24,000 nt of DNA from Oscillospiraceae bacterium (GTDB lineage Bacteria > Bacillota > Clostridia > Oscillospirales > Ruminococcaceae): positions 282 to 24,281 of the forward strand of contig JAZOOR010000050.1 of the NCBI GenBank assembly GCA_045655125.1, given 5' to 3'. Under the pieces are notes generated by a model that searched no databases, was not told the DNA's origin, and saw nothing but the letters and a program-made list of their open reading frames with translations. Each line of letters begins with the position of its first letter. Within the stretch, counting starts at the first letter, position 1. Below, piece by piece: positions 5,154 to 23,225 of this stretch. Made by a program: the position numbers and the translations under genes.

Positions 5154-5168
5154 ATTTTAAAAAAACTG

Positions 5169-5197
5169 TTGACAAGGCAGTTTGCGTGTGCTATAAT
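5169..5197 (+). promoter_or_regulatory. Sigma-A type promoter P1: -35 TTGACA 5169-5174, 17-nt spacer, extended -10 TGcTATAAT 5189-5197
   Basis: Both hexamers match consensus exactly, the spacing is 17 nt and a TGn extension is present. The promoter lies directly upstream of T-box leader 1. Confidence 0.8.
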
Positions 5198-5204
5198 GCA
5201 CTTA

Positions 5205-5482: not shown

Positions 5483-5504
5483 AACTTTTTAAGGAGGAAT
5501 TAAA

Positions 5505-8124: not shown

Positions 8125-10413
8125 ATGAAACAGATTACAGGGCTTGATTTTAAAATTCAGGAAATGGCAGGGCGTATCCGCGAGCTTCGTGAGATTGTCG
8201 GTCTTTCTGCCGAGCAGATGGCAGAGAAGACAGATGTTTCAGTAGAGGAATATCTTCTTTGCGAGGAGGGCAAAAGTGACCTAAACTTTGCCTTCATCTA
8301 TCGTTGTGCTCTGGCTTTCGGTGTTAACGTTACCGATATTATCGAGGGTTACAGCCCTAAGCTACGCTCTTATACCGTTACAAGAAACGGCGCAGGTCAG
8401 CAGATAGCCAATGCCCACGGTATGACCTATTATAACCTTGCATATGCTTTTCAGAACAGAATTGCTGAGCCTCTTTATGTCCGCAGCGCATATGACGAGT
8501 CAGCACAGGGAAAGGATATAGAGCTTACCACCCATTCGGGACAGGAGTGCGATATAGTAATAGAGGGTAACCTTATGGTGCAGATAGGTGAGCATCGTGA
8601 GGTGCTTTCTGCAGGTGACAGCATTTATTTTGACAGCTCCACCCCCCACGGCATGATTGCTGTAAATGGTAAGGACTGTGTTTTCTATGCCATAGTTCTA
8701 AACCCGACGGGTGAGCCTATCCCTGAGTTTGCGGCTAAGCCTAAAATCCCCGAAACCGTTAAAATCCCCGATGATACACGCGAGAGAATTTACCGTAACT
8801 ATACCACCGTTAAAAAGAATGAAAACGGAACCCCCGTTTCCATTGAATTTAAAAATACCGAGAAATTCAATTTCGCCTTTGACCTTGTCGACGCTCTCGC
8901 AGAGCGTGAGCCCGAAAAGCTTGCTATGCTACATATCGACAAAGAGGGAAAGGAGCGCCGCTTTACCTTCTCGGATATCAGCCGCGCCTCAAGTCAGTGC
9001 GCTAACTACTTTAAGTCACTCGGCATAAAGAAGGGCGACCGCGTTATGCTGGTCTTGAAGCGTCACTACCAGTTCTGGTTTGCGACCATTGGCTTAAACA
9101 AGCTTGGCGCTATTGCAATCCCCGCAACAAATCAGCTTCTTGAACACGATTTTGAGTATCGCTTTAAGGCGGCAGGAGTAAACACAATTATCTGCACCGC
9201 TGACGGTGATACTGCTAGAGAGGTAGAGGCGGCCGCCGAGAAGTACGGAAAAATTAAAAACAAGCTTATTGTTAACGGCAAAAGAGAGGGCTGGCGCAGC
9301 TTTGATGAGGAGTACACCCTCTTTAATAACTCCTTTGAGCGCACAGAGGATTCTCCCTGCGGTGATGACCTGCTTCTTATGTTCTTTACTTCGGGAACAA
9401 CAGGGTATCCCAAAATTGCGGCTCATAACCACAAATATCCCCTCGGCCATTTTCACACTGCTAAATACTGGCATAATGTTGATCCCGACGGTCTGCACTT
9501 TACCATTTCCGATACAGGCTGGGCAAAATCTATGTGGGGCAAGCTCTATGGTCAGTGGCTGTGCGAGGCGGCAATATTTGTCTATGACTTTGATAGGTTT
9601 GATGCCGCTGAAATCCTGCCTATGTTTGCAAAGCATAATATAACAACCTTCTGTGCACCCCCCACAATGCTTAGAATGATGGTTAAGCAGGATATTTCTA
9701 AATATGACCTTTCTTCCGTAAAGCATATGACAACCGCTGGTGAAGCACTCAATCCTGAGGTTTACCGTCAATTTGAAAAAGCAACGGGACTTCAGATTTT
9801 AGAGGGCTTTGGACAGACAGAAAGTACAATGATAATAGGAAATATGCGCGGTGCCGCGCATAAGATTGGCTCAATGGGCAAGCCTGCGCCTATTTATGAT
9901 GTAGAGCTTGTAGATGCCGATGGAAACCCTGTGCCCACAGGTGAGCCGGGCGAAATCGTTATCAATGTCAAAAACGGTATGCCCTGCGGTTTATTTACCG
10001 GCTACTATGGTGATGAGGAGAAAACACGCGAAGTTCTGCACGATGGATATTACCATACCGGCGACACCGCCTGGCGCGATGAGGATGGATATTTCTGGTA
10101 TGTCGGCAGGGTTGATGATGTTATCAAGTCCTCGGGCTACCGCATAGGACCCTTTGAGATTGAAAGCGTTATTATGGAGCTTCCCTATGTTCTTGAGTGT
10201 GGTGTATCCGCCGTTCCTGATGAGGTCAGGGGACAGATAGTCAAGGCAAGCATAGTCTTAACAAAAGGCACAGAGGGAACCGAGGAGCTTAAAAAGGAAA
10301 TTCAGAATTATGTTAAGGAGCACACCGCTCCCTATAAATACCCTCGTGTTGTTGTTTTTCGCGATAGCCTCCCCAAAACAGTCAGCGGAAAAATTCAGCG
10401 TAATAAGCTATAA
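8125..10413 (+). CDS. Paralogous fusion protein: XRE-type HTH + cupin + AMP-forming acyl-CoA synthetase (ACSM/MACS-like)
   Basis: The architecture and motifs match 5505-7772: THSGQECDIVIEGNLMV...GDSIYFDSSTPHGM, FFTSGTTGYPKI, GFGQTE, YHTGDTAWRDEDGYFWYVGRVDDVIKSSGYRIGPFEIES and PKTVSGKIQR. GGAGAG lies at 8113-8118. Confidence 0.85.
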   Translation: MKQITGLDFKIQEMAGRIRELREIVGLSAEQMAEKTDVSVEEYLLCEEGKSDLNFAFIYRCALAFGVNVTDIIEGYSPKLRSYTVTRNGAGQQIANAHGMTYYNLAYAFQNRIAEPLYVRSAYDESAQGKDIELTTHSGQECDIVIEGNLMVQIGEHREVLSAGDSIYFDSSTPHGMIAVNGKDCVFYAIVLNPTGEPIPEFAAKPKIPETVKIPDDTRERIYRNYTTVKKNENGTPVSIEFKNTEKFNFAFDLVDALAEREPEKLAMLHIDKEGKERRFTFSDISRASSQCANYFKSLGIKKGDRVMLVLKRHYQFWFATIGLNKLGAIAIPATNQLLEHDFEYRFKAAGVNTIICTADGDTAREVEAAAEKYGKIKNKLIVNGKREGWRSFDEEYTLFNNSFERTEDSPCGDDLLLMFFTSGTTGYPKIAAHNHKYPLGHFHTAKYWHNVDPDGLHFTISDTGWAKSMWGKLYGQWLCEAAIFVYDFDRFDAAEILPMFAKHNITTFCAPPTMLRMMVKQDISKYDLSSVKHMTTAGEALNPEVYRQFEKATGLQILEGFGQTESTMIIGNMRGAAHKIGSMGKPAPIYDVELVDADGNPVPTGEPGEIVINVKNGMPCGLFTGYYGDEEKTREVLHDGYYHTGDTAWRDEDGYFWYVGRVDDVIKSSGYRIGPFEIESVIMELPYVLECGVSAVPDEVRGQIVKASIVLTKGTEGTEELKKEIQNYVKEHTAPYKYPRVVVFRDSLPKTVSGKIQRNKL

Positions 10414-10422: not shown

Positions 10423-11088
10423 ATGGATTTTAAAAGAATCACTATGCTTTGCGGTCATTATGGCAGCGGAAAAACCAATGTTGCCGTAAATCTCGCACTT
10501 AAAATGGCAGAGAGCCGCGAAAACGTTGTGGCGCTCGATCTTGATATCGTAAACCCCTATTTCAGAACAAAGGATAGTATAAAGGAGCTGAAAGAGGCGG
10601 GAATTCGCCTTATTGCATCCTCTTATGCTAATACCAATGTTGATATTCCCGCGCTACCGCAGGAAATGTATGCAGTAACCGATGATAAGAGTATAACCGC
10701 GGTTTTAGATGTCGGTGGAGATGACAGAGGCGCACTTGCATTAGGCCGCCTTGCCCCCGCCATACTATCCGAAAACGATTATGAAATGCTTATGGTCATA
10801 AACTGCTACAGACCGCTTACAAAAACCGCCAAAGAGACCATTAAGGTTATGCGCGAGATAGAAACCGCCTGCGGCATTAAGTTTACGGGACTTGTCAACA
10901 ACTCAAATCTCGGCGCAATCACAACGCAGGAGGATATAATCGCCTCGCTGCCGTATGCGCAGGAGATTTCCGAAAAAACGGGGCTTCCCCTCGTTTACAC
11001 AAGTGTTCGTGAGGACATTTCTGAGGGACTTATGGAAAAAGTACCAAATCTTTTCCCATTATCCTTGCAGAAAAACCTCTTGATATAA
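10423..11088 (+). CDS. P-loop NTPase of unknown role (SIMIBI-like; Walker A GHYGSGKT)
   Basis: Motifs seen are Walker A GHYGSGKTN, then ALDLDIVNPYF and LDVGGDDRG (Walker B/switch-like). It lies 9 nt after the ligase stop and 31 nt before the ferredoxin gene. The family assignment is tentative. Confidence 0.6.
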   Translation: MDFKRITMLCGHYGSGKTNVAVNLALKMAESRENVVALDLDIVNPYFRTKDSIKELKEAGIRLIASSYANTNVDIPALPQEMYAVTDDKSITAVLDVGGDDRGALALGRLAPAILSENDYEMLMVINCYRPLTKTAKETIKVMREIETACGIKFTGLVNNSNLGAITTQEDIIASLPYAQEISEKTGLPLVYTSVREDISEGLMEKVPNLFPLSLQKNLLI

Positions 11089-11119: not shown

Positions 11120-11326
11120 ATGGCAAAACTCACATTTAAAACCGACAACTGTAAGGGCTGCGGACTTTGTATTGATGCCTGCCCCAAGAAGCTCTTGAGA
11201 CTTGCAGCAGACAAAATCAATTTAAAGGGACACCACCCCGCAGAAATTATTGATGAGGCTGCGTGCGTTGGATGTGCATCCTGTGCAATGATGTGTCCCG
11301 ACTGCATTATTAAGGTAGAAAGGTAG
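11120..11326 (+). CDS. 2x[4Fe-4S] ferredoxin, delta-type subunit of 2-oxoacid:ferredoxin oxidoreductase
   Basis: It is 68 aa with two CxxCxxCxxxCP motifs (CKGCGLCIDACP and CVGCASCAMMCP). It sits immediately upstream of the alpha subunit. Confidence 0.85.
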   Translation: MAKLTFKTDNCKGCGLCIDACPKKLLRLAADKINLKGHHPAEIIDEAACVGCASCAMMCPDCIIKVER

Positions 11327-11335: not shown

Positions 11336-12403
11336 ATGGCAGATAAAGTTTTGATGAAAGGAAACGAAGCGATAGCAGAGGCTGCAATTTTAGCAGGCTG
11401 CCGCCATTACTTCGGATATCCTATCACTCCGCAAACCGAAATTGCCGCATATATGGCAAAGAAAATGCCTAAAATCGGCGGCTGCTTTTTGCAGGCTGAG
11501 AGTGAAATTGCCGCTATCAATATGGTATACGGTGTTTCCTCTACAGGTAAAAGAGTTATGACCTCGTCGTCATCTCCCGGAATTTCCTTAAAGGGTGAGG
11601 GACTTTCGTATCTCGCAGGTGCTGACCTGCCCGCGCTTATTGTTAATGTTCAGCGCGGCGGACCCGGACTTGGCGGTATTCAGCCCTCGCAGTCTGACTA
11701 TTTCCAGGCTACAAGAGCCGCAGGCCACGGCGACTTTCATATGATAGTCCTCGCTCCCGCATCTGTTCAGGAGATGGCAGAGCTTACTGTAAAAGGCTTC
11801 GAGCTTGCAGATACATACAGAATGACAGCTATGATTTTGGCAGACGGAACTATGGGACAAATGATGGAGCCTGTTTCTCTTGATTTTGATGTTAAGCCTA
11901 TGCCCGCAAAGCCCTGGGCAACTGTTGGAACTAAGATGGAAAGAGAGCACAATATTACAAACTCCCTCTTCCTCGTTCCTGAAGACCTTGAAAAGATAAA
12001 CTTTGAGCGCTATGAGCGCTATAAAAAGATTGAGGAAACCGAAGTTATGTACGAGGAGTATATGATGGAGGATGCCGAAATCTGCATTGCAGCCTTTGGT
12101 ATTGCCGCAAGAGTTTCCAAAAATGCCGTTAATGAGGCAAGAAAAATGGGAATTAAGGTAGGTCTTATCCGCCCTATCACCCTCTGGCCTTTCCCCAAGG
12201 CTCCTTTCAAGAAGGCCGCAGAAAAAGTAAAGCAGATTATCTCTGTTGAACTTTCTATGGGACAGATGATTGAGGATGTCAAGATGGCATCTGAGTGCAA
12301 GGTTCCCGTAACATTAGTAAACCGCGTCGGCGGAATGATTCCCTCGCCCGAGCAGGTTTTAGAGGCAATAGTCGAGGCGGCTAAAAACGGAGGTGCAAAA
12401 TAA
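11336..12403 (+). CDS. 2-oxoacid:ferredoxin oxidoreductase alpha subunit (context suggests branched-chain 2-oxoacid, VOR-like)
   Basis: The N-terminus MKGNEAIAEAAILAGCRHYFGYPITPQTEI and QAESEIAAINMVYG...SSPGISL are typical of OFOR alpha subunits. Substrate cannot be read from the sequence by eye. Confidence 0.85.
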   Translation: MADKVLMKGNEAIAEAAILAGCRHYFGYPITPQTEIAAYMAKKMPKIGGCFLQAESEIAAINMVYGVSSTGKRVMTSSSSPGISLKGEGLSYLAGADLPALIVNVQRGGPGLGGIQPSQSDYFQATRAAGHGDFHMIVLAPASVQEMAELTVKGFELADTYRMTAMILADGTMGQMMEPVSLDFDVKPMPAKPWATVGTKMEREHNITNSLFLVPEDLEKINFERYERYKKIEETEVMYEEYMMEDAEICIAAFGIAARVSKNAVNEARKMGIKVGLIRPITLWPFPKAPFKKAAEKVKQIISVELSMGQMIEDVKMASECKVPVTLVNRVGGMIPSPEQVLEAIVEAAKNGGAK

Positions 12404-13161
12404 TGGCAGTTGTATTTGATAAACCCCATGCATTAACCGATGCTCCTATGCATTACTGCCCCGGCTGTACACACGGTATAGTTCACCGCCTTGTTGCCGA
12501 GGTTATTGATGAATTGGGCATCGAGGGCAGAACTATAGGTATTGCTCCCGTTGGCTGCTCTGTTATGGCTTATAACTATTTTGCCTGTGATATGATTGAG
12601 GCTGCACACGGCAGAGCTCCCGCAGTTGCAACAGGTGTTAAGCGTGCCGACCCCGAAAACCACATTGTTTTCACCTATCAGGGCGATGGCGACCTCGCTT
12701 CAATCGGTATGGCTGAAACTGTTCATGCTGCCGCAAGAAATGAGAATATTACCGTTATCTTTATAAATAATGCTATTTACGGTATGACAGGCGGCCAAAT
12801 GGCTCCCACCTCGCTTCCCGGTCAGGTTACACAGACTTCACCCTACGGCAGAGATACAAGCCACTGCGGTTTTCCCGTTAAGGTTTGCGAAATGCTTTCG
12901 CAGCTTGATGGACCCGAGTACTTAGAAAGAGTCACCGTTAATAATGTTAAGAATATCCGCGCTGCTAAAAAGGCTATTAAAAAAGCTTTTCAGAATCAGG
13001 TAGAGGGCAAAGGCTTCTCACTTATTGAAGTTGTTTCTTCCTGCCCTACAAACTGGGGTATGACACCGGGGGCGGCTCTTAAGTGGATTGACGATAATAT
13101 GCTTCCTTACTACCCTCTCGGTGTGTATAAGGACAGAAGCGCAAAAAAGGAGGAAGAATAA
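12403..13161 (+). CDS. 2-oxoacid:ferredoxin oxidoreductase beta (TPP-binding) subunit
   Basis: Motifs seen are YCPGCTHGIV, the TPP motif GDGDLASIG...NNAIYGMTGGQ, and a [4Fe-4S] cysteine pattern. It overlaps the alpha stop by 1 nt. Confidence 0.88.
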   Translation: MAVVFDKPHALTDAPMHYCPGCTHGIVHRLVAEVIDELGIEGRTIGIAPVGCSVMAYNYFACDMIEAAHGRAPAVATGVKRADPENHIVFTYQGDGDLASIGMAETVHAAARNENITVIFINNAIYGMTGGQMAPTSLPGQVTQTSPYGRDTSHCGFPVKVCEMLSQLDGPEYLERVTVNNVKNIRAAKKAIKKAFQNQVEGKGFSLIEVVSSCPTNWGMTPGAALKWIDDNMLPYYPLGVYKDRSAKKEEE

Positions 13162-13694
13162 TGGCTACAAAACAGTACCTGTTTTCAGGCTTCGGCGGTC
13201 AGGGAATTTTGTTTTCGGGTAAATTCTTAGCCTATAAGGGTCTGACTGAAGGCAAAAATGTAAGCTGGCTCCCCTCATATGGCCCCGAAATGCGCGGAGG
13301 AACTGCAAGCTGTAGCGTTATCATAAGTGATGAGGCTGTAGGCTCTCCTATCGTTTCAAATCCCGATGTTCTTGTTGCTATGAACCTGCCCTCCCTTGAT
13401 AAGTTTGAGGATAGCGTTGCAAAGGGCGGCATTATCATCGCAGATTCCACCCTCATTGAAAGAAAAGTTAAGCGCGATGATGTAACAGTTTACTATGTTC
13501 CCGCCACCCGCCTTGCAAGTGAGAATGACATTCCCACCCTCGCCAATATGATTATTATCGGCAAGCTTATGCAGGCAACAGGCGAGTATAGCGAAGAGGG
13601 CGTAAACACCGCTCTCTCCAAGGTTATTTCGGCAAAACGCGCCAATATGCTTGAAGCAAACTTCAAGGCAATCAAAATCGGCGCAGAGTATTAA
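13161..13694 (+). CDS. 2-oxoacid:ferredoxin oxidoreductase gamma subunit
   Basis: FSGFGGQGILFSGKFLA...SYGPEMRGGTASCSV is the OFOR gamma signature. It overlaps the beta stop by 1 nt. Confidence 0.88.
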   Translation: MATKQYLFSGFGGQGILFSGKFLAYKGLTEGKNVSWLPSYGPEMRGGTASCSVIISDEAVGSPIVSNPDVLVAMNLPSLDKFEDSVAKGGIIIADSTLIERKVKRDDVTVYYVPATRLASENDIPTLANMIIIGKLMQATGEYSEEGVNTALSKVISAKRANMLEANFKAIKIGAEY

Positions 13695-13711: not shown

Positions 13712-14776
13712 ATGCAGATTTCTTTTACAAAAACCACTTGTCCTAAGGAAAAACCCGATAGCAGCAATCTCGGATTTGGTAAAATCTTTACCGACCATAT
13801 GTTTATGATGGATTATTCAAGAGAGAAAGGCTCTTGGTACAATGCAAGAATAGTTCCCTTTGAGAACATTTCTCTGCACCCTGCATCAACAGTTCTTCAC
13901 TACGGCTCTGAGATTTTTGAAGGACTTAAAGCTTATAGAAGAGCCGATGGCAAGGTTCAGCTTTTCCGTCCTATCGAGAATATCCGCAGAATGAACAGCT
14001 CCGCAGAGCGCCTCTGCCTGCCTCAGATTCCCGAGGAGGATGCGCTGCAGGTTCTCACCGAGTTTGTAAAAATTGAGCAGGACTGGACTCCGTCTGCTTC
14101 GGGCACATCCCTCTACCTGCGCCCCTTTATGTTCGGAAATGATGAATCACTCGGAGTTCACGCCGTTCATAATGCTACCTTTGTTATCATAGCTTCACCC
14201 GTTGGCAGCTATTATAAAGAAGGCATCAACCCCGTTAAGATTATGATTGAGGATGAGGATGTCAGAGCTGTCCGCGGCGGCACAGGCTATGCAAAATGCG
14301 GCGGTAATTACGCTGCAAGTAACCGTGCAGGCGAGAGAGCAGAGCAGAAAGGCTATTCTCAGGTTCTCTGGCTCGATGGCGTTGAGAGAAAATATATTGA
14401 GGAAGTCGGCGCTATGAATGTTATGTTCAAAATCGCAGGCGAAATCGTAACCCCCGCACTTAGCGGTTCAATTCTCCCAGGCATCACAAGAAAATCAATT
14501 ATTGAGCTTTTAAATAGCGAAGGCTATAAGGTAAGTGAGAGACTTCTCTCTATCGATGAGCTCGAAAAAGCTCTTGAAAACGGAACACTTGAAGAGGCTT
14601 GGGGCTGCGGCACCGCCGCTGTTGTTTCCCCCATCGGTGAGCTTTGCTACAAGGATAAAAAGTACACCGTTTCGGGCGGCAAAATCGGAGAGGTCACTCA
14701 GCACCTTTACGATACTTTAACAGGTATCCAGTGGGGTAAATTAAAGGATAACTTCGGCTGGACAGTAGAACTCTAA
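13712..14776 (+). CDS. ilvE: Branched-chain amino acid aminotransferase (class IV, long form)
   Basis: Motifs seen are FTDHMF, LHYGSEIFEGLKAYR, YLRPFMFG, GGTGYAKCGGNYAAS, PGITRKS and GCGTAAVVSPI. AGGAGG lies upstream. Confidence 0.9.
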   Translation: MQISFTKTTCPKEKPDSSNLGFGKIFTDHMFMMDYSREKGSWYNARIVPFENISLHPASTVLHYGSEIFEGLKAYRRADGKVQLFRPIENIRRMNSSAERLCLPQIPEEDALQVLTEFVKIEQDWTPSASGTSLYLRPFMFGNDESLGVHAVHNATFVIIASPVGSYYKEGINPVKIMIEDEDVRAVRGGTGYAKCGGNYAASNRAGERAEQKGYSQVLWLDGVERKYIEEVGAMNVMFKIAGEIVTPALSGSILPGITRKSIIELLNSEGYKVSERLLSIDELEKALENGTLEEAWGCGTAAVVSPIGELCYKDKKYTVSGGKIGEVTQHLYDTLTGIQWGKLKDNFGWTVEL

Positions 14777-14859: not shown

Positions 14860-15066
14860 TTATTTGTTTATTTGTGGATTATCGGTTCTTTCAAGCAAAT
14901 AATCTATCGAAATGTTAAAATAATCCGCAATTTGTATAAGCTCTTTTATTCCAGGCTCATGCTTACTATTTTCGTATCTACTGATAGTATTTTGAGTTGT
15001 ATTTAAGTCAATAGCCAGTTTTAATTGTGAAATTCCTTTTGATTTTCTGATTTCTTTTAATCTCAT
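14860..15066 (-). CDS. Small XRE/Cro-C1-type helix-turn-helix DNA-binding protein
   Basis: It is 68 aa. RLKEIRKSKGISQLKLAIDLNTTQNTISRYENSKHEP...IADYFNISIDYLL is a textbook HTH_3 pattern. Confidence 0.85.
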   Translation of the reverse strand: MRLKEIRKSKGISQLKLAIDLNTTQNTISRYENSKHEPGIKELIQIADYFNISIDYLLERTDNPQINK

Positions 15067-15083
15067 AAAATTACCTTTTGAGC

Positions 15084-15257
15084 CTATTTGTCTTGCTCTA
15101 AGTCTTCAAGTGCACTCTTAACTGCGGCAACAACAAAGGCTGAAAAAGTACATTCTTTACCAACAATCGCCTTTTCAACCGCCTCTATAACATCATCGGG
15201 AAAACGAATGGATTTATTTGTGGTTGTAGGATTATGCGGAATTTTAAAATTGCCCAT
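15084..15257 (-). CDS. Ribbon-helix-helix (Arc/CopG-like) small protein, 57 aa, absent from the ORF track
   Basis: I translated the minus strand by hand: MGNFKIPHNPTTTNKSIRFPDDVIEAVEKAIVGKECTFSAFVVAAVKSALEDLEQDK. GGAGG lies 8 nt upstream of the ATG (complement of 15266-15270). The KSIRFPDDVIEAVEKA beta-strand/helix pattern looks RHH-like. The gene ends 17 nt before the HTH gene start. Confidence 0.6.
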   Translation of the reverse strand: MGNFKIPHNPTTTNKSIRFPDDVIEAVEKAIVGKECTFSAFVVAAVKSALEDLEQDK

Positions 15258-15271
15258 ACATATTACCTCCG

Positions 15272-15334
15272 TTACAATTTGTAATTATATTGTATTACTA
15301 AATGTGCAATAAATAACTATTGCATTTGTAATGC
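15272..15334. promoter_or_regulatory. Divergent control region with three inverted repeats (candidate operators)
   Basis: The repeats are TTACAA-t-TTGTAA (15272-15284), TGCAATA-n6-TATTGCA (15305-15324) and GCATT-tgt-AATGC (15322-15334). ATTTGTAAT occurs twice (15277-15285 and 15324-15332). A possible + strand promoter is TTGCAT 15320-15325 / TACAAT 15343-15348 with a 17-nt spacer. Confidence 0.5.
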
Positions 15335-15365
15335 GTTAGTGCTACAATAAAGTGGAGGTGAGAAA

Positions 15366-15530
15366 ATGGACGAGTATAAAAAGCCGTGCCTTATATTGTT
15401 TAATGCATTTACCGATGCCAAGAAGAGCCTGATGGAAAACGATATGCTAAGAGCAATAGAAATTCTTGATACTGCACAGATGAAATCTGAGGAAGCATTT
15501 ATTTGCTTTGATGAGCAGCAAAAGGGATAA
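15366..15530 (+). CDS. Hypothetical small protein, 54 aa, absent from the ORF track
   Basis: Hand translation gives MDEYKKPCLILFNAFTDAKKSLMENDMLRAIEILDTAQMKSEEAFICFDEQQKG. A strong RBS GGAGGTG (15354-15360) lies 5 nt upstream of the ATG. I recognise no family. Confidence 0.45.
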   Translation: MDEYKKPCLILFNAFTDAKKSLMENDMLRAIEILDTAQMKSEEAFICFDEQQKG

Positions 15531-15586: not shown

Positions 15587-15615
15587 TTGACAAGGCACAG
15601 ATGCGGTGATATAAT
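15587..15615 (+). promoter_or_regulatory. Sigma-A type promoter P3: -35 TTGACA 15587-15592, 17-nt spacer, extended -10 TGaTATAAT 15607-15615
   Basis: Both hexamers are consensus with a TGn extension. The -35 and about 20 nt upstream are near-identical to P1. Confidence 0.8.
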
Positions 15616-15622: not shown

Positions 15623-15892
15623 TATTTCAAATGCGATGATGGAATTATTTCTTATTAGGTCTTTCATCAAAGAGAGCCGCCGATGGTGTGAATGCGGTAT
15701 GAAAGTGATAGGGAAGTCTCGTTCCGGAGCAGAGCGGCTGAAATTTTTAAGTAAGCGGCTTCGGCTTGCCCCGTTACCTTGGCAGAAGGCTTGATAGAGC
15801 CTTACAAAGTGGCTGTGTTTTCGCAGCAATCAGGGTGGTACCGCGAAATATTTCGTCCCTGAGACCGAAATTGTCGGTCTCAGGGTTTTTTT
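15623..15892 (+). promoter_or_regulatory. T-box riboswitch leader 3, specifier probably CUC (Leu) at 15718-15720 (alternative GUC, Val, 15716-15718)
   Basis: Elements seen are K-turn GCGATGA-GGAA (15633-15644) paired with TTCC-GGAGC (15722-15730), helix CTTTCAT/ATGAAAG, AG bulge AGAGAG (15671-15676), distal loop GGTGTGAA (15686-15693), T-box sequence AGGGTGGTACCGCG (15832-15845) and a terminator at 15857-15892. Confidence 0.85.
15857..15892 (+). terminator. Intrinsic terminator of T-box leader 3
   Basis: An 11-bp perfect stem pairs CCCTGAGACCG with CGGTCTCAGGG, with a 7-nt loop, followed by 7 T (15886-15892). Confidence 0.88.
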
Positions 15893-15928: not shown

Positions 15929-17308
15929 ATGAAACAAATCAAAATCGCAGACACAACGCTTTGCAGAAAAGAGGGCGCATTTTCTTTTAAAGAGAAAATC
16001 GAAATTGCAAGACAGTTAGAGCGCCTTTGCGTTGACACTATTGAGCTTCCCGAAATTGAAAACGCAAAAACCGACATCTTGCTTGTAAAAACTATATCCT
16101 CTTTTGTTAAAAAGAGCATCATCTCGGTTGCCGCAGGCAGCAGCCTTAAGAGTATTGAAAATGCCGCTGTAGCTCTCTGTAATGCCGCAAAGGCAAGAAT
16201 TCGCATTGAGCTTCCCATTTCACCCGTCGGAATGGAATATACCTGCCGCAAAAAAGCTCCCAAAATGCTCGAATACATAAAAGAGTGCGTAAAATGTGCG
16301 CGTGAAAAGTGCGATGACGTTGAGTTTTGCGCAGTTGATGCCACCCGCGCTGATAAAGGATACTTAAAAGAGGCTATGGACGCTGCTATCAGCGCAGGAG
16401 CTACCTCTGTTACTATTTGCGACAGCGCCGACGAAATGATGCCCGATGATTTTGCGGCATACATTAAAGAAAATGCTAAGGATATTGCCGTTCCCGTCGC
16501 AGTTTCCTGTGAGAATAAAAACGGGCTTGCGGTTGCAACCGCAATTCTCTCTGTAAGAGCGGGAGCAGACTGTGTTAAAACTTCTGTAAACGGCGAAGGT
16601 GTGCCTCTTGACACCTTTGCAACTATGATTCGCAACTGCGGAAACAACTATGGCTTTGAAACTAAAATCCGCAGCACCGAGCTTCACAGAATTGTAAAGC
16701 AGATAAACTGGATAGTTGGTGCTAACGAAAATGATAAGTCTGTTGTTACCGTTTCTTCAAACGACGAAATGGGAATTCACCTTGATGTTAACGATAGTAA
16801 AGATGATGTCTGCGCTGCAACACAAAAGCTTGGCTATGACCTTTCACAAGAGGACAAGGCAAGAGTTTACGAGGAATTTCTGCGCGTTGCAGATAAAAAG
16901 ACTGTCGGAGCAAAGGAGCTTGATGCAATTGTTGCAAGCGTTGCTTTGCAGGTGCCCGCAACCTATCAGCTTGTAAGCTATGTTATAAATAACGGAAACA
17001 TTATTTCCGCCACCGCACAGATAACCGTAAATAAAAACGGAGAGCATATGCAGGGCTTCTCACTCGGTGACGGACCTATCGATGCCGCATTTTTAGCCAT
17101 CGACCAGATAATCGGTCACCACTATGAGCTTGATGATTTCCAGATTCAGTCGGTAACCGAGGGCAAGGAGGCTATGGGCTCGGCTTTAGTTAAGCTTCGC
17201 GCAGGCGGAAAGCTCTATAGCGGAAACGGAATTTCAACCGATATTATAGGCGCATCTATTCGCGCATATCTTAATGCCGTTAACAAAATTGTTTATGAGG
17301 AGGCATAA
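15929..17308 (+). CDS. 2-isopropylmalate synthase-like protein (HMGL-like TIM barrel + LeuA-type C-terminal domain) with substituted catalytic motifs
   Basis: The layout is LeuA-like: IKIADTTL... at the N-terminus, and GDGPIDAAFLAI and GNGISTDIIGASIRAYLNAVNKI at the C-terminus. Canonical DTTLRDGEQ is DTTLCRKEG, HxHNDxG is SCENKNG and GERAGN is GEGVPL. I prefer the ATG at 15929 (MKQIKIADTTL, preceded by AAAGGAAAG) over 15911. Confidence 0.7.
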   Translation: MKQIKIADTTLCRKEGAFSFKEKIEIARQLERLCVDTIELPEIENAKTDILLVKTISSFVKKSIISVAAGSSLKSIENAAVALCNAAKARIRIELPISPVGMEYTCRKKAPKMLEYIKECVKCAREKCDDVEFCAVDATRADKGYLKEAMDAAISAGATSVTICDSADEMMPDDFAAYIKENAKDIAVPVAVSCENKNGLAVATAILSVRAGADCVKTSVNGEGVPLDTFATMIRNCGNNYGFETKIRSTELHRIVKQINWIVGANENDKSVVTVSSNDEMGIHLDVNDSKDDVCAATQKLGYDLSQEDKARVYEEFLRVADKKTVGAKELDAIVASVALQVPATYQLVSYVINNGNIISATAQITVNKNGEHMQGFSLGDGPIDAAFLAIDQIIGHHYELDDFQIQSVTEGKEAMGSALVKLRAGGKLYSGNGISTDIIGASIRAYLNAVNKIVYEEA

Positions 17309-17310: not shown

Positions 17311-19830
17311 ATGAAACTTTCCTTTTCAACAAAGGGATGGCATAACAACACCTTTTCCGAGTTTTGCGATATAGCAGTTGACTTGGGGTTTAAAGGAATA
17401 GAGCTTCATAATATTGGCGGCCGCCTGTTTACAGAGCGCGACGGCGCGTTTTATGACTATGCCGCCGCCGCAACAATGCGCCGCCTTTATGAAAAAGGTC
17501 TCACCATTCCCTGTATTGATACAATCTGCGATATTGCAGACGAGAGCCAAAGAGACACAGCAAAAGAGGAAATCGAAAAGTGCCTTTCTATTGCAGAAAA
17601 TCTGCATATTCAGAATATTCGTCTGCGCGCATTTGCAAAAGAGGATAGCGAGGGCGCGCTGAAAACAGTTTCAGCACTGCTTTCAGAAATGATGCCCAAA
17701 GCGGAGGAAAAGGGTGTTGCCTTAGCGCTCGAGACCTCCGGACTTTTTGCAAGCACCGAGATTCTCCGCGATATGCTCGACTCTTTTGCCTGCGATAATT
17801 TAGGCGCACTGTGGAACTTTTCTGCCGCCTATTTTGAGAGCGGCGAGGAGCCTGAGACTGTTATTAAAAACCTCGGCGCATATGTCCGCCACGTGCATTT
17901 TAATGATGCGCAGAAAACCAAAAACGGTATGGAATACTGCCTTGCGGGTGAGGGTGAGCTTCCCATAAAAGAGCTTATGCTCGCTCTGCGCTCTGTAAAT
18001 TATGACGGATTTATCTCTCTCGTCTGGGACCCTACATGGTGCTTAGAAATTGACGATATGGAGATTATCTTTTCACAGTTTACAAACTTTATGAAGCAGT
18101 TTAAGGCAGTTTCCCGAAACGAGAAACAACTATACTACAACCGCGCACATACAGGCAAATTTGTATGGGAAAAGGACAAGATAATTGACCTTACATTCTC
18201 GCAGGTTTTAGACAGAATGGTAGAGGAATTTCCCGACCAGTATGCCTTTAAATACACAACCCTTGACTATACGCGCACATACAGCGAGTTTCGCGATGAC
18301 GTTGACACCTTTGCCCGCGCCCTTATTTCAATGGGAGTAAAGGCAGGCAGCAAGGTTGCTGTATGGGCATCAAATGTGCCGCAGTGGTATATTGCGTTCT
18401 GGGCAACAGTAAAAATCGGCGCGGTCTTGGTTACTGTTAACACCGCCTATAAAATTCACGAGGCAGAGTATTTGCTACGTCAGTCCGACACACATACCCT
18501 TGTTTTAACCGAGGGTGCAAAGGACACTCACTATGGTAAAATAATTTCCGAGCTTTGCCCTGAGCTTGAATGTAAAGAGGCTTCAAAACCTCTTCACAGT
18601 AAGCGTCTTCCGTTCCTTAGGAATGTTATCACAGTAGGATTTAAGCAGAAAGGCTGTATGACTTGGAACGAGGCTATCGAGCGCGCCGCTCAGGTTTCGC
18701 CTGAAGAGGTCAGAAGAATGGCAGCCGCCGTTGATAAGGATGATGTCTGCAATATGCAGTACACCTCAGGCACAACAGGCTTCCCCAAGGGAGTTATGCT
18801 CACCCACTATAACGTTGTTAATAACGGAAAATATATCGGCGACCATATGGATTTGTCAACTGCAGACCGTATGATGATTCAGGTTCCTATGTTCCACTGC
18901 TTTGGAATGGTGCTTTCTATGACCGCTTCAATGACGCACGGAACTACAATGTATCCTCTGCCTTATTTTTCTCCCAAACCCGCGCTCGCTTGCGTTCACA
19001 ATGAGCATATTACCACCTTTAACGGTGTTCCTACTATGTTTATCGCTATGATGGAGCATCCCGACTTTGCCAAGACGGATTTTTCATATATCAGAACGGG
19101 AATTATGGCGGGCGCAAACTGCCCTGCCGACCTTATGAAAAAGGCAACGGAAGTTATGAATATGAAAGAGATAGTTTCTGTTTACGGACAGACCGAGGCA
19201 AGCCCCGGCTGCACTATGAGCAGTTACTATGACACACTCGAGGTTCGCACAGAGACTGTCGGCAGTGCCTTTGCAAATGTCGAGTGCAAAATCATCGACC
19301 CCGAAACGGGCGAGGACTGCCCCGACGGAGTTGACGGTGAGTTTGTTGCACGCGGCTACAATATTATGAAAGGCTATTACAAAATGCCTGCTGCAACCGC
19401 CGCCGCTATTGATAAGGATGGCTGGCTTCATACAGGTGACCTTGCCTGCCGCGCTCCTGACGGTACTTATCGCATTACAGGCAGACTTAAGGATATGATT
19501 ATCCGCGGCGGTGAGAACATTTATCCTAAGGAAATTGAGGAGTTTATTTACACCAATCCCAAGGTCAGCGATGTTCAGGTTATTGGAGTTCCCGACAAGC
19601 AGTATGGTGAAGAAATTATGGCATGTATCATACTTAAAGAGGGAGAGAGCATGACTGCTGACGAGATGAAAGCCTATATCGGAGCAAGTATGGCTCGTCA
19701 TAAGGTTCCGAGGTATATTGACTTTGTAGATAGCTTCCCGATGAATGCCGCGGGGAAAATCCTTAAATACAAAATGCGCGAGGATGCGGCTAAAAAACTC
19801 GGTCTTGATAAGGCGGGGAACAAAAAATGA
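17311..19830 (+). CDS. Fusion protein: N-terminal xylose-isomerase-like (AP endonuclease 2 family) TIM barrel + C-terminal AMP-forming acyl-CoA ligase (FadD/YngI-like)
   Basis: Residues 1 to about 265 have the pattern FKGIELHN...LALETSG...VRHVHFNDA...DGFISLVWDP, typical of sugar-phosphate isomerase/epimerase-like barrels. The rest carries MQYTSGTTGFPKGVMLTH, VYGQTE, GWLHTGDL, GRLKDMIIRGGENIYPKEIE and MNAAGKILK. GAGGAGG lies upstream, and there is a 2-nt gap from the previous gene. Confidence 0.8.
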   Translation: MKLSFSTKGWHNNTFSEFCDIAVDLGFKGIELHNIGGRLFTERDGAFYDYAAAATMRRLYEKGLTIPCIDTICDIADESQRDTAKEEIEKCLSIAENLHIQNIRLRAFAKEDSEGALKTVSALLSEMMPKAEEKGVALALETSGLFASTEILRDMLDSFACDNLGALWNFSAAYFESGEEPETVIKNLGAYVRHVHFNDAQKTKNGMEYCLAGEGELPIKELMLALRSVNYDGFISLVWDPTWCLEIDDMEIIFSQFTNFMKQFKAVSRNEKQLYYNRAHTGKFVWEKDKIIDLTFSQVLDRMVEEFPDQYAFKYTTLDYTRTYSEFRDDVDTFARALISMGVKAGSKVAVWASNVPQWYIAFWATVKIGAVLVTVNTAYKIHEAEYLLRQSDTHTLVLTEGAKDTHYGKIISELCPELECKEASKPLHSKRLPFLRNVITVGFKQKGCMTWNEAIERAAQVSPEEVRRMAAAVDKDDVCNMQYTSGTTGFPKGVMLTHYNVVNNGKYIGDHMDLSTADRMMIQVPMFHCFGMVLSMTASMTHGTTMYPLPYFSPKPALACVHNEHITTFNGVPTMFIAMMEHPDFAKTDFSYIRTGIMAGANCPADLMKKATEVMNMKEIVSVYGQTEASPGCTMSSYYDTLEVRTETVGSAFANVECKIIDPETGEDCPDGVDGEFVARGYNIMKGYYKMPAATAAAIDKDGWLHTGDLACRAPDGTYRITGRLKDMIIRGGENIYPKEIEEFIYTNPKVSDVQVIGVPDKQYGEEIMACIILKEGESMTADEMKAYIGASMARHKVPRYIDFVDSFPMNAAGKILKYKMREDAAKKLGLDKAGNKK

Positions 19831-20642
19831 TAGCAAACTACAAGGTTATTGACGCGCATTGTCACGTCTACCCCGAAAAAATTGCCGCAGCAGCAGTAAA
19901 TGCAACAGATAAATTTTATGATACTGTTTCAGCATTTGACGGCAGCACTGACGCTCTGCTTTCACAGTGTCAGCGCGAGGGAGTTGACCACGCGATTATT
20001 CAGTCTGTCGCAACAACCCCGAAGCAAGTTTCAAGCATAAACCAATTTATTGCAAAAACCGTAGAGGATAGCGGCGGAAAATTTACAGGTCTCGGAACAC
20101 TTCATCCCGACAGCTCAGATATCGCTGCTGACGTGCGTGAAATAATTGAGTTAGGACTCCACGGAGTCAAGCTTCACCCAGATATTCAAAGGTTTAAGAT
20201 AGACGATTACCGCTGCCTTAAAATCTATGAGCTGTGCGAAAGAGAGGGCCTTCCCATTTTAATGCACACGGGTGATAACAGATATGATTTTTCAAATCCC
20301 AACCGTCTGCTGCCTATTTTAGACATCTACACCGAGCTTGTTGTAGTTGGCGCGCATCTGGGCGGCTGGTCTATATGGGAAGAGGCGGGAGAGGTTTACC
20401 CGAGCCATAAAAACTTTTATGTTGACACCTCATCAACGCTGCACTTTTGTGGCATAGAAATTATGAAAAGAACTATAGAAAAATACGGGGCGGATAAGGT
20501 AATGTTTGCAACCGACTATCCTATGGGAGAGCAAAAGCGGGAGATTGATGCCCTGCTTTCTATGAATTTTTCAGACGAGGATTACAAAAAAATCTTCTCT
20601 GAAAACGCAAAAAAGGTCTTTAAAATTAAAGCAAATATTTAA
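19827..20642 (+). CDS. Amidohydrolase-2 family (TIM-barrel metal-dependent hydrolase/decarboxylase-like) protein
   Basis: VIDAHCHVYP (HxH), GVKLHPD, LMHTGD and FATDYPM (Asp on the last strand) match the metal-ligand pattern of this family. The ATGA start overlaps the upstream stop by 4 nt. Confidence 0.7.
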   Translation: MIANYKVIDAHCHVYPEKIAAAAVNATDKFYDTVSAFDGSTDALLSQCQREGVDHAIIQSVATTPKQVSSINQFIAKTVEDSGGKFTGLGTLHPDSSDIAADVREIIELGLHGVKLHPDIQRFKIDDYRCLKIYELCEREGLPILMHTGDNRYDFSNPNRLLPILDIYTELVVVGAHLGGWSIWEEAGEVYPSHKNFYVDTSSTLHFCGIEIMKRTIEKYGADKVMFATDYPMGEQKREIDALLSMNFSDEDYKKIFSENAKKVFKIKANI

Positions 20643-20646
20643 AATT

Positions 20647-20680
20647 ACCTTTGCGGCGGCACAAAAGCCGCCGCAAAGGT
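20647..20680. terminator. Long perfect hairpin after the amidohydrolase gene (probable terminator, no clean T tract)
   Basis: A 14-bp perfect stem pairs ACCTTTGCGGCGGC with GCCGCCGCAAAGGT around the loop ACAAAA. The downstream sequence is ATAAAAAC, so the U-tract is missing. Confidence 0.6.
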
Positions 20681-20700
20681 ATAAAAACTTGCATTTTCTA

Positions 20701-20940: not shown

Positions 20941-22125
20941 ATGATAAACTCTAATATGCTCGCACTCGGCAAAAAAAGCTCGGTCATCAGAGAAATTTTT
21001 GAGTATTCCAAAAAGAGAAAGCTTGAAATCGGCGATGAAAATGTTTTTGATTTCAGCCTTGGAAACCCAAGTATTCCTGCTCCCGAGATTGTAACAGAAA
21101 CAATGAAGCGCCAAATGGCTGAAAAAGACCCCGTTGCTCTGCACGGCTACACCTCCGCACCAGGTGACTTAAAGGTCAGAAAAACTATTGCTAATAATAT
21201 AAACGAGCGTTTTGGCTTTGAGGCTCAGACTAATCTTATTTATATGACCTGTGGAGCTGCCGCTTCTCTCACCATAACCCTTAAAGCTATCATTGAGGAA
21301 GGTGACGAGGTTATCCTTTTGGCTCCCTTTTTCCCCGAGTATCAGGTTTTTGCCGCAAACGCGGGAGCAAAAACAAGGGTAGTTAAAGGCGTGGGCGAGC
21401 AGTTTGAGATAGACGAAAAGGCACTCTCAGAGGCAGTAAACAAACACACACGCGCCATAATCGTAAACTCCCCTAATAATCCCACAGGCGCGGTACTTAG
21501 CGAAGATAGCATTAAAACCTTAGCTCGTATACTCAGTGAAAAGCAAGAGGAGTATGGCAGAGCCATTACCATTATTGCAGACGAGCCTTACCGCGAGCTT
21601 GTATATAACGGTGCAGTTGTACCTTATATCCCCAATTACTACGATAACACAGTAGTATGCTATTCCTATAGTAAATCTCTTTCGCTCCCCGGTGAGAGAA
21701 TTGGCTACATATCTGTTTCTCCTAAGATTGAGAATGCGGGGGATGTCTTTGCAGCAGTTTGCGGAGCGGGCAGAAGTATGGGATACGTATGCGCCCCGAG
21801 TCTCCTGCAGTACACCGCCGCCGCTTGCGACGGTGCCGCCCCCGACATTTCGGCATATGACAAAAACAGAACTCTTTTATACAACTCTCTTTGTGAAATG
21901 GGATATAGCGCTACTCGTCCCGACGGTGCATTTTATCTCTTTGTAAAGTCACTTGAGCCTGATGCAAATGCATTTTGCGAGAGAGCCAAGAAATATGAGC
22001 TACTGCTTGTCCCGAGCGACGATTTCGGTGTAGAGGGATATGTAAGAATAGCCTACTGCGTAGGCTATGAGCAGATTGAGCGCTCACTTCCCGCCTTTAA
22101 AAAGCTTTATGAGGAATATAAATAA
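20941..22125 (+). CDS. Class I/II PLP-dependent aminotransferase (aspartate/aromatic aminotransferase family)
   Basis: Motifs seen are FSLGNP, NSPNNPTG and SYSKSLSLPGERIGY (PLP lysine). I prefer the ATG at 20941, with AGGAG at 20928-20932. The track start at 20884 (TTG) lies inside the terminator hairpin. Confidence 0.85.
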   Translation: MINSNMLALGKKSSVIREIFEYSKKRKLEIGDENVFDFSLGNPSIPAPEIVTETMKRQMAEKDPVALHGYTSAPGDLKVRKTIANNINERFGFEAQTNLIYMTCGAAASLTITLKAIIEEGDEVILLAPFFPEYQVFAANAGAKTRVVKGVGEQFEIDEKALSEAVNKHTRAIIVNSPNNPTGAVLSEDSIKTLARILSEKQEEYGRAITIIADEPYRELVYNGAVVPYIPNYYDNTVVCYSYSKSLSLPGERIGYISVSPKIENAGDVFAAVCGAGRSMGYVCAPSLLQYTAAACDGAAPDISAYDKNRTLLYNSLCEMGYSATRPDGAFYLFVKSLEPDANAFCERAKKYELLLVPSDDFGVEGYVRIAYCVGYEQIERSLPAFKKLYEEYK

Positions 22126-22136
22126 GGAGTAAAATA

Positions 22137-23225
22137 ATGGCTGACTTAAAAGAGGCAAGGCAGATTATAAATGAAACTGACAAGGCTATGGCAGAGCTTT
22201 TTAAAAAGAGAATGGATGCCGCACGTTTTGTCGCCGAATATAAGAGGCTGCACGGTCTGCCTGTTGAGGATTTAGCGCGCGAGGAGGAAATTGTTGCTCG
22301 CAATTCGCAGTACATAGAGGACGAGGATTACCGCTCATATTATGTAAATTTTCTTCGCAACAATATCGAGCTTTCAAAACAGTTTCAGCACCGCCTTTTA
22401 GACGGAATGAGGGTTGCCTACAGCGGAGTGGAGGGTGCTTTTGCAAATATCGTTGCTGAGCGCATTTTCCCCGATGCCAAGGCAGTTGCCCATAGTGATT
22501 TTAAGGTAGCGTATGATGCTGTTGTTTCGGGCGAGTGTGACTGCGCGCTTTTGCCTATTGAAAACAGCTTTAACGGCGATGTCAGCAAGGTTTTAGACTT
22601 AGCATTCTTCGGCCCTTTGTATGTAAACGGAATTTATGAGGCTGAAATAGTTCAGAACCTTCTGGCAGTTAAGGGCACTACTCTTGACGAGATAAAAACC
22701 GTCATCAGTCACCCTCAGGCGCTCGGACAGTGCGCCTCATATATAGAAAAGCACGGCTTTGAAACGCAGGAGGCTGTAAACACTGCGGTTGCCGCAAAGC
22801 AGGTTGCCGAAATGGCAAGACACGACATAGCCGCCATAGGCTCAAGCGAGGCGGCAGAAAAATTCGGTCTTAAAGAGCTTGCCTCTCACATAAATGAAAG
22901 CAGCACCAACACTACACGCTTTGCCGTTTTTTCAAGGGCGCAGAAAAAGGAAAGCCCTAATGATGCGCGTTTTATAATGCTTTTTACCGTTAAAAATGCC
23001 GCAGGCTCACTGGGCCGCGCCATTTCGGTTATCGGAGAGCATGGCTTTAACCTTTTGGCACTAAAAAGCCGTCCCACAAAAGAGCTTGTATGGGATTACT
23101 ATTTCTATGTCGAGGGCGAGGGCAATATAAACAGCCCCGAGGGCAGAGAAATGCTAAAGGACCTTAAAGGCTGCTGCAGTAACCTGAAAGTTGTTGGCAG
23201 CTTTGAGAAAGAGGTCCGAATTTAA
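22137..23225 (+). CDS. pheA: Bifunctional chorismate mutase / prephenate dehydratase (P-protein) with C-terminal ACT domain
   Basis: The N-terminal CM_2-like helices are LKEARQIINETDKAMAELFKKRMDAARFVAEYK. The PDT core is RVAYSGVEGAFANI...LLPIENSFNGDV...HPQALGQC...NTTRFAVFS. The ACT region is FTVKNAAGSLGRAISVIGEHGFNLLALKSRP. Confidence 0.9.
   Translation: MADLKEARQIINETDKAMAELFKKRMDAARFVAEYKRLHGLPVEDLAREEEIVARNSQYIEDEDYRSYYVNFLRNNIELSKQFQHRLLDGMRVAYSGVEGAFANIVAERIFPDAKAVAHSDFKVAYDAVVSGECDCALLPIENSFNGDVSKVLDLAFFGPLYVNGIYEAEIVQNLLAVKGTTLDEIKTVISHPQALGQCASYIEKHGFETQEAVNTAVAAKQVAEMARHDIAAIGSSEAAEKFGLKELASHINESSTNTTRFAVFSRAQKKESPNDARFIMLFTVKNAAGSLGRAISVIGEHGFNLLALKSRPTKELVWDYYFYVEGEGNINSPEGREMLKDLKGCCSNLKVVGSFEKEVRI

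Follow-up and report, generated by a model that had tools for sequence, protein, structure and literature searches.

INTRODUCTION

2-Isopropylmalate synthase (LeuA; EC 2.3.3.13; structures 1sr9/3fig and 3rmj) is a DRE-TIM metallolyase with an HMGL-like (beta/alpha)8 barrel, a helical subdomain II and, at its C terminus, a regulatory domain, and the leuA operons of Firmicutes are typically under the control of a leucine T-box. Here we describe a LeuA-derived protein of 459 amino acids (aa), referred to below as the LeuA-like protein, that retains these three parts, the two Gly-rich loop/helix motifs of the regulatory domain and the leucine T-box, but has lost the LeuA active site. Its gene lies at positions 15929-17308 (+) of a 24,000-nucleotide (nt) stretch of DNA from Oscillospiraceae bacterium GCA_045655125.1 (contig JAZOOR010000050.1, forward strand, 282-24,281), which is called the window throughout and to which all positions refer. 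We propose, with a probability of roughly one half, that the LeuA-like protein is a HisZ-like, leucine-sensing subunit of an isovalerate-type ligase, acting in the leucine arm of a salvage regulon.

The differences from LeuA are considerable. The LeuA-like protein is ~50 aa shorter and is without the catalytic Arg-Asp pair, both His ligands, the Glu of the GERAGN motif and the accessory subdomain I. Its gene is not beside leuBCD in the loci surveyed and is always beside the gene for a fusion of a TIM barrel to an acyl-coenzyme A (CoA) ligase. The pattern of conservation is also inverted, the regulatory domain being conserved far more strongly than the barrel. Two other enzyme types invite comparison, namely CimA and NifV/HCS, which share the HMGL-like barrel; CimA also has the LeuA_dimer domain, which binds isoleucine in Leptospira CimA (3f6g). 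Both are enzymes with a full D-R-E/HxH active site, unlike the LeuA-like family.

A parallel of a different kind is HisZ, a catalytically dead histidyl-tRNA synthetase paralogue that serves as the regulatory subunit of the short-form ATP phosphoribosyltransferase HisG (PMC9734150). Like HisZ, the LeuA-like protein is a dead paralogue of an amino-acid-handling enzyme in which the amino-acid-binding part appears to have been kept, and it is encoded together with what would be the first enzyme of a pathway to the same amino acid; in the case of HisZ, that enzyme requires the paralogue. The folds and the partners are unrelated, and the HisZ complex and its allosteric response to histidine have been demonstrated, whereas for the LeuA-like protein the corresponding properties are inferred from synteny and conservation.

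For the ligases of the window, the closest described protein is MbcS of Staphylococcus aureus, which activates exogenous 2-methylbutyrate and isobutyrate and makes very poor use of isovalerate (PMC10026030). Two cupin-fused ligases in the window, which lie under T-boxes for the amino acids corresponding to these two fatty acids, isoleucine and valine, have MbcS as their closest named family. MbcS differs from them in feeding lipid synthesis, not amino-acid synthesis, and in having no helix-turn-helix (HTH)/cupin extension, and the ligase paired with the LeuA-like protein belongs to another ANL subfamily (PRK12583-like), with ~25% identity to the cupin-ligases.

Ruminococci have long been known to depend on branched-chain volatile fatty acids. 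Rumen bacteria reportedly carboxylate branched-chain fatty acids reductively to branched-chain amino acids, as described by Allison and Bryant in the 1960s. Both the set of ligase, oxidoreductase and aminotransferase (IlvE) genes and the rumen and hindgut habitat of the Oscillospirales fit this route. To our knowledge, neither the genes for that carboxylation route, nor a partition among three T-boxes, nor a LeuA-derived accessory has been described for it, and our literature search found no paper dealing with the LeuA-like family, nor one describing T-box control of a route that leads from fatty acids to amino acids.

RESULTS

The LeuA-like protein and the loss of its active site

The gene and the parts of its product are as follows.

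15929-17308, + strand: LeuA-derived protein, 459 aa (open reading frame (ORF) call, Pfam, NCBIfam, HMMER, AlphaFold model, Foldseek)
15929-16714, + strand: LeuA-like barrel, residues 1-262
15950-15976, + strand: DTTLCRKEG in place of DTTLRDGEQ; catalytic Arg and metal-binding Asp gone, 3-4 residues deleted
16505-16525, + strand: SCENKNG where LeuA has HxHNDxG; neither of the His metal ligands is left
16715-16918, + strand: LeuA-like linker/subdomain II, residues 263-330
16919-17305, + strand: LeuA_dimer regulatory domain, residues 331-459
17066-17092, + strand: GDGPIDAAF, residues 380-388, Gly-rich loop and helix N-terminus, near-invariant in the family
17222-17290, + strand: GNGISTDIIGASIRAYLNAVNKI, residues 432-454, second Gly-rich loop and helix, near-invariant and aligning to M. 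tuberculosis LeuA

The open frame spans 15911/15929..17308 (+), and the ATG at 15929 (MKQIKI...), which agrees with the start of all homologues, is preceded by the ribosome-binding site AAGGAAAG. Pfam assigns HMGL-like (PF00682) to residues 15-255 with 125 bits, and LeuA_dimer (PF08502) to residues 328-454 with 105 bits over 127 of the 131 profile positions. The protein nevertheless falls far below the cutoff of every curated LeuA model in NCBIfam: NF002086, the top LeuA equivalog, reaches 288 bits where the cutoff is 532, and TIGR00973 reaches 249 where it is 599. Databases label it "hypothetical protein" or, occasionally and wrongly, "2-isopropylmalate synthase".

The original prediction, which was made from the letters of the window, held that the protein is co-linear with LeuA, that its catalytic motifs are substituted and that the C-terminal LeuA-type domain is kept. 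Co-linearity holds overall. [quoted passage not shown] The modelled barrel superimposes on 3rmj/3ewb with a root mean square deviation of 1.7 A (Foldseek), and DmpG-type aldolases are also among the fold matches. When the last 173 aa of the protein were searched with phmmer against the sequences in the PDB, no meaningful match resulted. What the original prediction overlooked is the absence of the post-catalytic accessory subdomain I, ~20 residues equivalent to GxNAFxHESGIHQDG being deleted relative to LeuA. Members of the family give no match to PF22617, which LeuA/CimA matches do carry. In M. tuberculosis LeuA, this PF22617 subdomain holds the His and Tyr that are needed for catalysis and allostery.

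The listed motif substitutions were reproduced exactly in HMMER alignments to 3rmj, 3ewb and 3eeg, in which DTTLRDGEQSPG of solved LeuA aligns to DTTLCRKE---G, HCHNDLG to SCENKNG, and NGLGERAGN to NGEGVPL. A shifted register that would restore the catalytic residues had been named as a possible refutation; no such register brings back the Arg, the Asp or either His. Nor are the losses peculiar to this genome. Motif and conservation statistics were taken over 103 family representatives, with 32 LeuA/CimA sequences as a comparison set. The metal-binding Asp is kept in only 9 of the 103 and the Arg of the RD motif in 33. The first His position is occupied by E, Q, S, C or R, the second by S in 57 representatives, and at neither position of HxH does His rank among the commonest residues. 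The column of the GERAGN Glu is a gap in 95. The metal triad and the Arg are thus absent both here and as a family pattern, the same pattern of substitution holding in the 103 representatives. To judge from these alignments, the metal-dependent mechanism of LeuA is closed to the LeuA-like protein. Five defining features were looked for and are absent, and the protein therefore lies outside the LeuA enzyme family in the functional sense; it would work like a regulatory pseudoenzyme.

The nearest outgroup clusters (P0254, P0257, P0259 and P0266; ~500 aa) are LeuA paralogues with partly eroded active sites. Examples are DSTLCEGERS together with HSQND, and DTTLCDGEQS together with RAYND, with GERAGN-like motifs and the accessory subdomain still present. 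These proteins may be evolutionary intermediates, and their partial erosion suggests that the active site was lost stepwise. Separately, a catalytic role like that of the carboxyltransferase branch of the HMGL-like fold (pyruvate carboxylase/oxaloacetate decarboxylase) was considered and rejected, because the same Asp-His-His metal site is required there.

As an alternative, the LeuA-like protein could be a neofunctionalised enzyme or a substrate-handling subunit, its altered barrel binding an acyl-CoA or 2-oxoacid such as isovaleryl-CoA or ketoisocaproate, and either carrying out metal-independent chemistry or channelling a thioester from the ligase to an oxidoreductase, with the regulatory domain serving for dimerisation only. 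Six barrel residues (D8, T10, S98, D137, R140 and D165) are kept family-wide, the RD-motif Arg survives in a third of the clusters (33/103), and HMGL-like barrels elsewhere channel with CoA-dependent partners, as in the DmpG-type aldolases. The kept residues, however, are also conserved in true LeuA, where they occupy second-shell or structural positions; the family alignment contains no new invariant constellation of His, Cys or Lys; the deletion has removed the subdomain by which the active site is capped in LeuA; and the barrel is conserved far less than the regulatory domain (33% against 58%). We consider a substrate-handling function unlikely, and return to it below in connection with the ligase.

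The regulatory domain is the most conserved part

Mean pairwise identity among the 103 representatives is 0.33 for the barrel, 0.29 for the linker and 0.58 for the regulatory domain, compared with 0.52, 0.50 and 0.54 for the same three parts of the 32 LeuA/CimA sequences. The C-terminal LeuA-type domain has therefore not only been kept, as originally predicted, but is the most conserved part of the protein. Purifying selection is strong and acts chiefly on this domain.

Conservation within the domain centres on the two Gly-rich loops. The family consensus of the first is G380-D-G-P-x-D-A-x-F, with G380, G382 and P383 invariant; in the window it reads GDGPIDAAF, and its aligned counterparts are GNGPLAA in M. 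tuberculosis LeuA and GDGGYDA in the citramalate synthase of Leptospira. The second, G432-x-G-I-S-T-D-I, in which G432, G434, S436, T437 and D438 are invariant or nearly so, aligns to GVGIAPSI of M. tuberculosis LeuA. In that enzyme the carboxylate of leucine is placed between two helix N-termini, in pockets at the dimer interface of the regulatory domains, according to a secondary account (PMC11057210).

The family is large. More than 120 clusters at 90% identity, with 66-93% identity, all consist of proteins of ~459 aa, and a scan with one genome per species found a relative in at least 589 species genomes. The carriers are nearly all Acutalibacteraceae, Ruminococcus, Oscillospiraceae or metagenome-assembled genomes (MAGs) of Clostridia, of animal-gut origin. 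An exhaustive HMMER pass over 1.84 billion representatives extended the family to more than 100 clusters at 50% identity, of 455-475 aa, down to 33% identity.

Such a record leaves little room for a functionless, decaying leuA pseudogene, even though every hallmark catalytic motif is destroyed. The frame is intact and its length constant at ~459 aa across those species genomes, the C-terminal domain is near-invariant in more than 100 divergent clusters, and both operon position and T-box control are conserved. These properties rule out a decaying relic for practical purposes, and we give the idea next to no weight.

A leucine T-box operon shared with a ligase fusion

The LeuA-like gene is the first of three genes in an operon, the other features of which are the following.

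15587-15615, + strand: sigma-70-type promoter, TTGACA, 17-nt spacer, TATAAT, extended TG (12/12 consensus match)
15627-15863, + strand: T-box leader with CUC (Leu) specifier at 15718-15720 (RF00230, 123.9 bits)
15857-15892, + strand: intrinsic T-box terminator, a 12-bp stem and then a T run
17311-19830, + strand: TIM-barrel/ANL acyl-CoA ligase fusion, 839 aa, starting 2 nt past the LeuA-like stop
19827-20642, + strand: Amidohydro_2 metal-dependent hydrolase/decarboxylase-type protein, with a 4-nt overlap with the ligase stop
20646-20681, no strand assigned: 15-bp GC-rich hairpin ending the three-gene operon

The T-box match is well above the gathering score of the RF00230 model (93 bits) and covers model positions 1-219, including stem I and the T-box sequence, and the T-box bulge UGGU pairs with an ACCA 3' end. 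Specifiers were read from the leader alignment by a position rule, not from tRNA-binding data. In the window the specifier loop is GAAGU-CUC-G-UUCC, with a purine after CUC and then the stem.

Related loci were compared over 10 kb on either side of the gene, for 88 loci that include 80 close ones (L001-L080) and the distant look-ups. A T-box core lies no more than 400 nt upstream in 73 of 76 related loci, and L001-L080 share the specifier context AAG(U/C)CUC(R)UUCC, as do the distant loci L081 and L083-L085. CUC is found in ~70 of 73 close leaders despite variable flanks (L069 has CUG, which is also a leucine codon), and in all four distant loci where a T-box was detected (L081, L083, L084 and L085). 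The leucine T-box named in the original prediction is thereby well established. When tRNA-Leu is uncharged, the LeuA-like protein and the ligase fusion are made together.

In most related loci the T-box follows IlvE within ~400 nt. In the window, a small insertion (14860-15530) lies between ilvE and the leucine T-box promoter and contains a 68-aa XRE-type HTH protein (14860-15066, -), a 57-aa protein (15084-15257, -) and a 54-aa ORF (15366-15530, +).

Residues 1-~280 of the ligase fusion form a xylose-isomerase-like TIM barrel (AP_endonuc_2), and residues ~290-839 a PRK12583-like ANL ligase whose core motifs TSGTTGFPKG, YGQTE, TGD, GRLKD and AAGK are all intact. The association of this protein with the LeuA-like protein is close. 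The order LeuA-like, TIM-ligase, amidohydrolase is found in essentially all 80 close loci where the contig extends, and the gap between the LeuA-like stop and the ligase start has a median of 2 nt (range -4 to 25, n=69), with ATGA overlaps at this junction in 14 of the 69 loci. Even among distant members, which are 29-37% identical to one another and include Victivallales and Synergistaceae MAGs, the LeuA-like gene is directly upstream of a TIM-ligase-type gene in 8/8 look-ups; the downstream gene has Pfam support in 7 of these, and in L084 it is truncated where the contig stops and has no annotation. Some apparently stand-alone TIM proteins proved to be split or truncated copies of the ligase fusion, with the LeuA-like gene still upstream. 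The partnership with the ligase fusion that the original prediction had put forward is strongly supported by this invariant adjacency and translational coupling, short of proof.

We also considered whether the LeuA-like protein modulates a genuine LeuA. Heterodimers with a canonical enzyme encoded elsewhere are conceivable because LeuA is a domain-swapped dimer, and the LeuA-like protein, which retains the barrel and the LeuA_dimer domain that form this dimer, would adjust de novo leucine synthesis as a subunit with a dominant-negative or sensitising effect. Its position beside the ligase gene would then be secondary. Its nearest outgroups are the partially eroded LeuA paralogues described above, and in L082 (a Victivallales MAG, 592-7291) the LeuA-like/ligase pair, here without a T-box, directly follows ilvB-ilvN-ilvC, a position where leuA often sits. 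This arrangement suggests horizontal spread beyond Firmicutes and integration into an ilv operon. Against a modulator of LeuA, the constant companion of the gene is the translationally coupled TIM-ligase fusion, no canonical leuA, leuB, leuC or leuD is found within the 10-kb flanks of any of the 88 loci, and induction by the T-box on leucine starvation suits an inhibitor of LeuA poorly. This explanation appears very unlikely.

As a further measure of association, a mirror-tree comparison over 54 loci gave a correlation of 0.75 between the LeuA-like barrel and the TIM domain of the ligase, and a partial correlation of 0.56 after ligase and amidohydrolase distances were removed; the partial correlation with the ligase domain proper was -0.06. 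There is here a weak hint that the LeuA-like barrel may contact the ligase TIM barrel. The same covariation of the barrel with the TIM domain would also be expected of the substrate-handling subunit considered above, and that idea draws further support from L083 and L085, in which the pair is co-operonic with a 2-oxoacid:ferredoxin oxidoreductase. In both loci the LeuA-like/TIM-ligase pair, IlvE, a P-loop protein, a ferredoxin and VorABC form a single operon, and the amidohydrolase is displaced or absent.

The TIM domain of the ligase occurs in two states. The canonical E-D-H-E tetrad is kept in about half of the family, distant members included, as ALWD/HIKD/SLEW; in the other, covarying state, ALWN(H)/HFND/SLVW, two ligands are lost. 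The window's own clade has the two-ligand-loss state (17311-18150), so that the window may carry a second degenerate barrel. The amidohydrolase, for its part, has conserved metal ligands (HxH...H...H...D) and appears to be active; its nearest solved relative is the uncharacterised Bordetella protein BB4693 (3irs, E 9e-17).

These two proteins raise the question of whether the operon has some other leucine-related purpose, such as releasing leucine or the corresponding keto acid from a conjugate, or obtaining it from a hydroxy- or keto-acid precursor, with the TIM barrel and the amidohydrolase as enzymes and with the LeuA-like protein as an accessory. The complete set of amidohydrolase metal ligands, the tetrad in about half of the TIM domains, which suggests real chemistry beyond what simple salvage needs, and a ligase from a different ANL subfamily than the MbcS-like ligases are all compatible with such a purpose. 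On the other hand, the pair lies in an IlvE-VOR operon in L083 and L085, and there the amidohydrolase is dispensable or displaced; the TIM domain of the window's clade has lost two of its four ligands; and isoleucine, valine and leucine T-boxes around one oxidoreductase and one IlvE suit salvage of three acids. We judge such a purpose to be rather improbable.

Proposed isoleucine and valine arms of the regulon

Upstream of the leucine operon, the window contains the following features.

5211-5454, + strand: T-box leader with AUC (Ile) specifier (RF00230, 88.2 bits, E 8e-19, under the gathering score)
5505-7772, + strand: Cupin_2 and AMP-binding fusion (cupin-ligase 1), best NCBIfam match MbcS
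7829-8072, + strand: T-box leader with GUA (Val) specifier (RF00230, 84.1 bits, E 9e-18, under the gathering score)
8125-10413, + strand: HTH, Cupin_2 and AMP-binding fusion (ligase 2), MbcS-like
10423-11088, + strand: P-loop CbiA/ParA/NUBPL-like protein
11120-11326, + strand: 68-aa 2x[4Fe-4S] ferredoxin
11336-13694, + strand: 2-oxoacid:ferredoxin oxidoreductase alpha, beta and gamma; alpha passes NCBIfam VorB (534 bits vs 399)
13712-14776, + strand: branched-chain aminotransferase IlvE, NCBIfam equivalog passed (484 bits vs 307)

Three ANL acid-activating ligases, a VOR-type (ketoisovalerate:ferredoxin) oxidoreductase and a branched-chain aminotransferase are thus encoded together in the window. 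The GUA specifier recurs in nine loci and AUC in L074 and L081. The presence of isoleucine, valine and leucine T-boxes around a ketoisovalerate:ferredoxin oxidoreductase and IlvE points to salvage of isovalerate to leucine, and the different ligase type in the leucine arm can be explained because MbcS is poor with isovalerate. Isovalerate is accordingly the substrate that we infer for the LeuA-paired ligase, from the leucine T-box and the poor use of isovalerate by MbcS.

The cupin-ligases (5505-7772 and 8125-10413) are unusual XRE-type HTH, Cupin_2 and AMP-binding proteins of 755 and 762 aa, and their HTH-cupin module may act as a sensor of amino acids, or as a DNA-binding regulator joined to the enzyme. 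L085 encodes the cupin on its own, as a 183-aa protein adjoining its ligase, which parallels the separate LeuA-like protein beside the TIM-ligase. In many loci the genes for the P-loop protein and the ferredoxin are conserved in their place between those for the ligase and the oxidoreductase, and the pair is also found in L081, L083, L085 and L086. The P-loop protein may be an Fe-S delivery factor and the ferredoxin the delta subunit of VOR.

The regulon is bordered by further genes of amino-acid biosynthesis, namely argC(partial)-argJ-argB-argD-argF upstream (352-5153) and genes for an aminotransferase (PRK06836-type) and a chorismate mutase/prephenate dehydratase downstream (20941-23225). 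Other loci instead have metB-like and homoserine O-succinyltransferase genes after the amidohydrolase.

DISCUSSION

Our interpretation of the LeuA-like protein as a leucine-sensing subunit combines the regulatory part of LeuA with the pathway encoded around it. Uncharged tRNA-Leu switches on the operon through the CUC T-box. The ligase fusion would then convert isovalerate, or a close analogue, to its CoA thioester, VOR would reductively carboxylate the thioester to 2-ketoisocaproate in a ferredoxin-dependent reaction, and IlvE would transaminate 2-ketoisocaproate to leucine. In the LeuA-like protein the LeuA barrel would have been kept as a scaffold and the regulatory domain would be the functional part: the dead LeuA would dimerise via its regulatory domains, take up leucine in the interface pockets and dock on the ligase fusion. 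When the cell is replete with leucine, it would throttle the ATP-consuming activation step, providing a fast feedback layered over the T-box, comparable to the action of HisZ on HisG. The binding of leucine, the complex with the ligase and the inhibitory effect on it are all predictions, drawn from comparison of sequences and gene order.

Several observations weigh against this interpretation. The family profile matches the solved LeuA/CimS regulatory domains, those of M. tuberculosis LeuA and LiCMS, weakly (E 0.08-8), so that the domain may have kept its specificity for leucine or may bind another ligand. The kept barrel residues could serve a new binding or catalytic role and not a purely structural one. 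No fusion of the LeuA-like protein to the ligase, of the Rosetta-stone type, is present among matches up to ~520 aa, and a common phylogeny and similar rates of evolution confound the mirror-tree signal. Finally, a simple isovalerate-to-leucine scheme leaves the roles of the TIM domain and the amidohydrolase unexplained. Neither is needed for the plain route, and it is therefore possible that the substrate is a precursor of isovalerate, or that the two have auxiliary roles.

The leucine-sensing subunit may be part of a broader organization. The simplest reading of the window as a whole is that it encodes three salvage arms from branched-chain fatty acids to branched-chain amino acids, each switched by its cognate uncharged tRNA. 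A more elaborate version, which we put forward tentatively and with somewhat less assurance than the role of the LeuA-like protein itself, is a three-armed isoleucine, valine and leucine salvage system with a T-box for each arm and a sensor for each ligase. In such a system the amino acids would be rebuilt from 2-methylbutyrate, isobutyrate and isovalerate, HTH-cupin modules would be the sensors for isoleucine and valine, and the LeuA pseudoenzyme would allosterically shut the leucine ligase, its dead barrel possibly docking onto the ligase's own TIM barrel. The system would be at work in Oscillospirales of the gut and rumen and, where it has been transferred, in some Synergistaceae and Victivallales.

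What is new in this proposal is a regulatory pseudoenzyme derived from an allosteric enzyme, within a regulon that is undescribed at the gene level. If the proposal is true, an allosteric domain has lasted longer than the enzyme to which it belonged and has been put to use in controlling another, and this would be the first LeuA regulatory domain to act in trans on an unrelated enzyme. It would also be a natural, free-standing leucine-binding module for biosensor design.

Finally, the findings bear on how the physiology of these organisms is read from their genomes. If metabolic reconstructions took the LeuA-like protein for LeuA, many Clostridia of the gut and rumen would wrongly be credited with de novo synthesis of leucine. 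With its three T-boxes, three ligases, VOR and IlvE, the locus offers a concrete set of genes with which the reliance of ruminococci on branched-chain volatile fatty acids can be tested, and the same gene set could mark cross-feeding on isovalerate, isobutyrate and 2-methylbutyrate.

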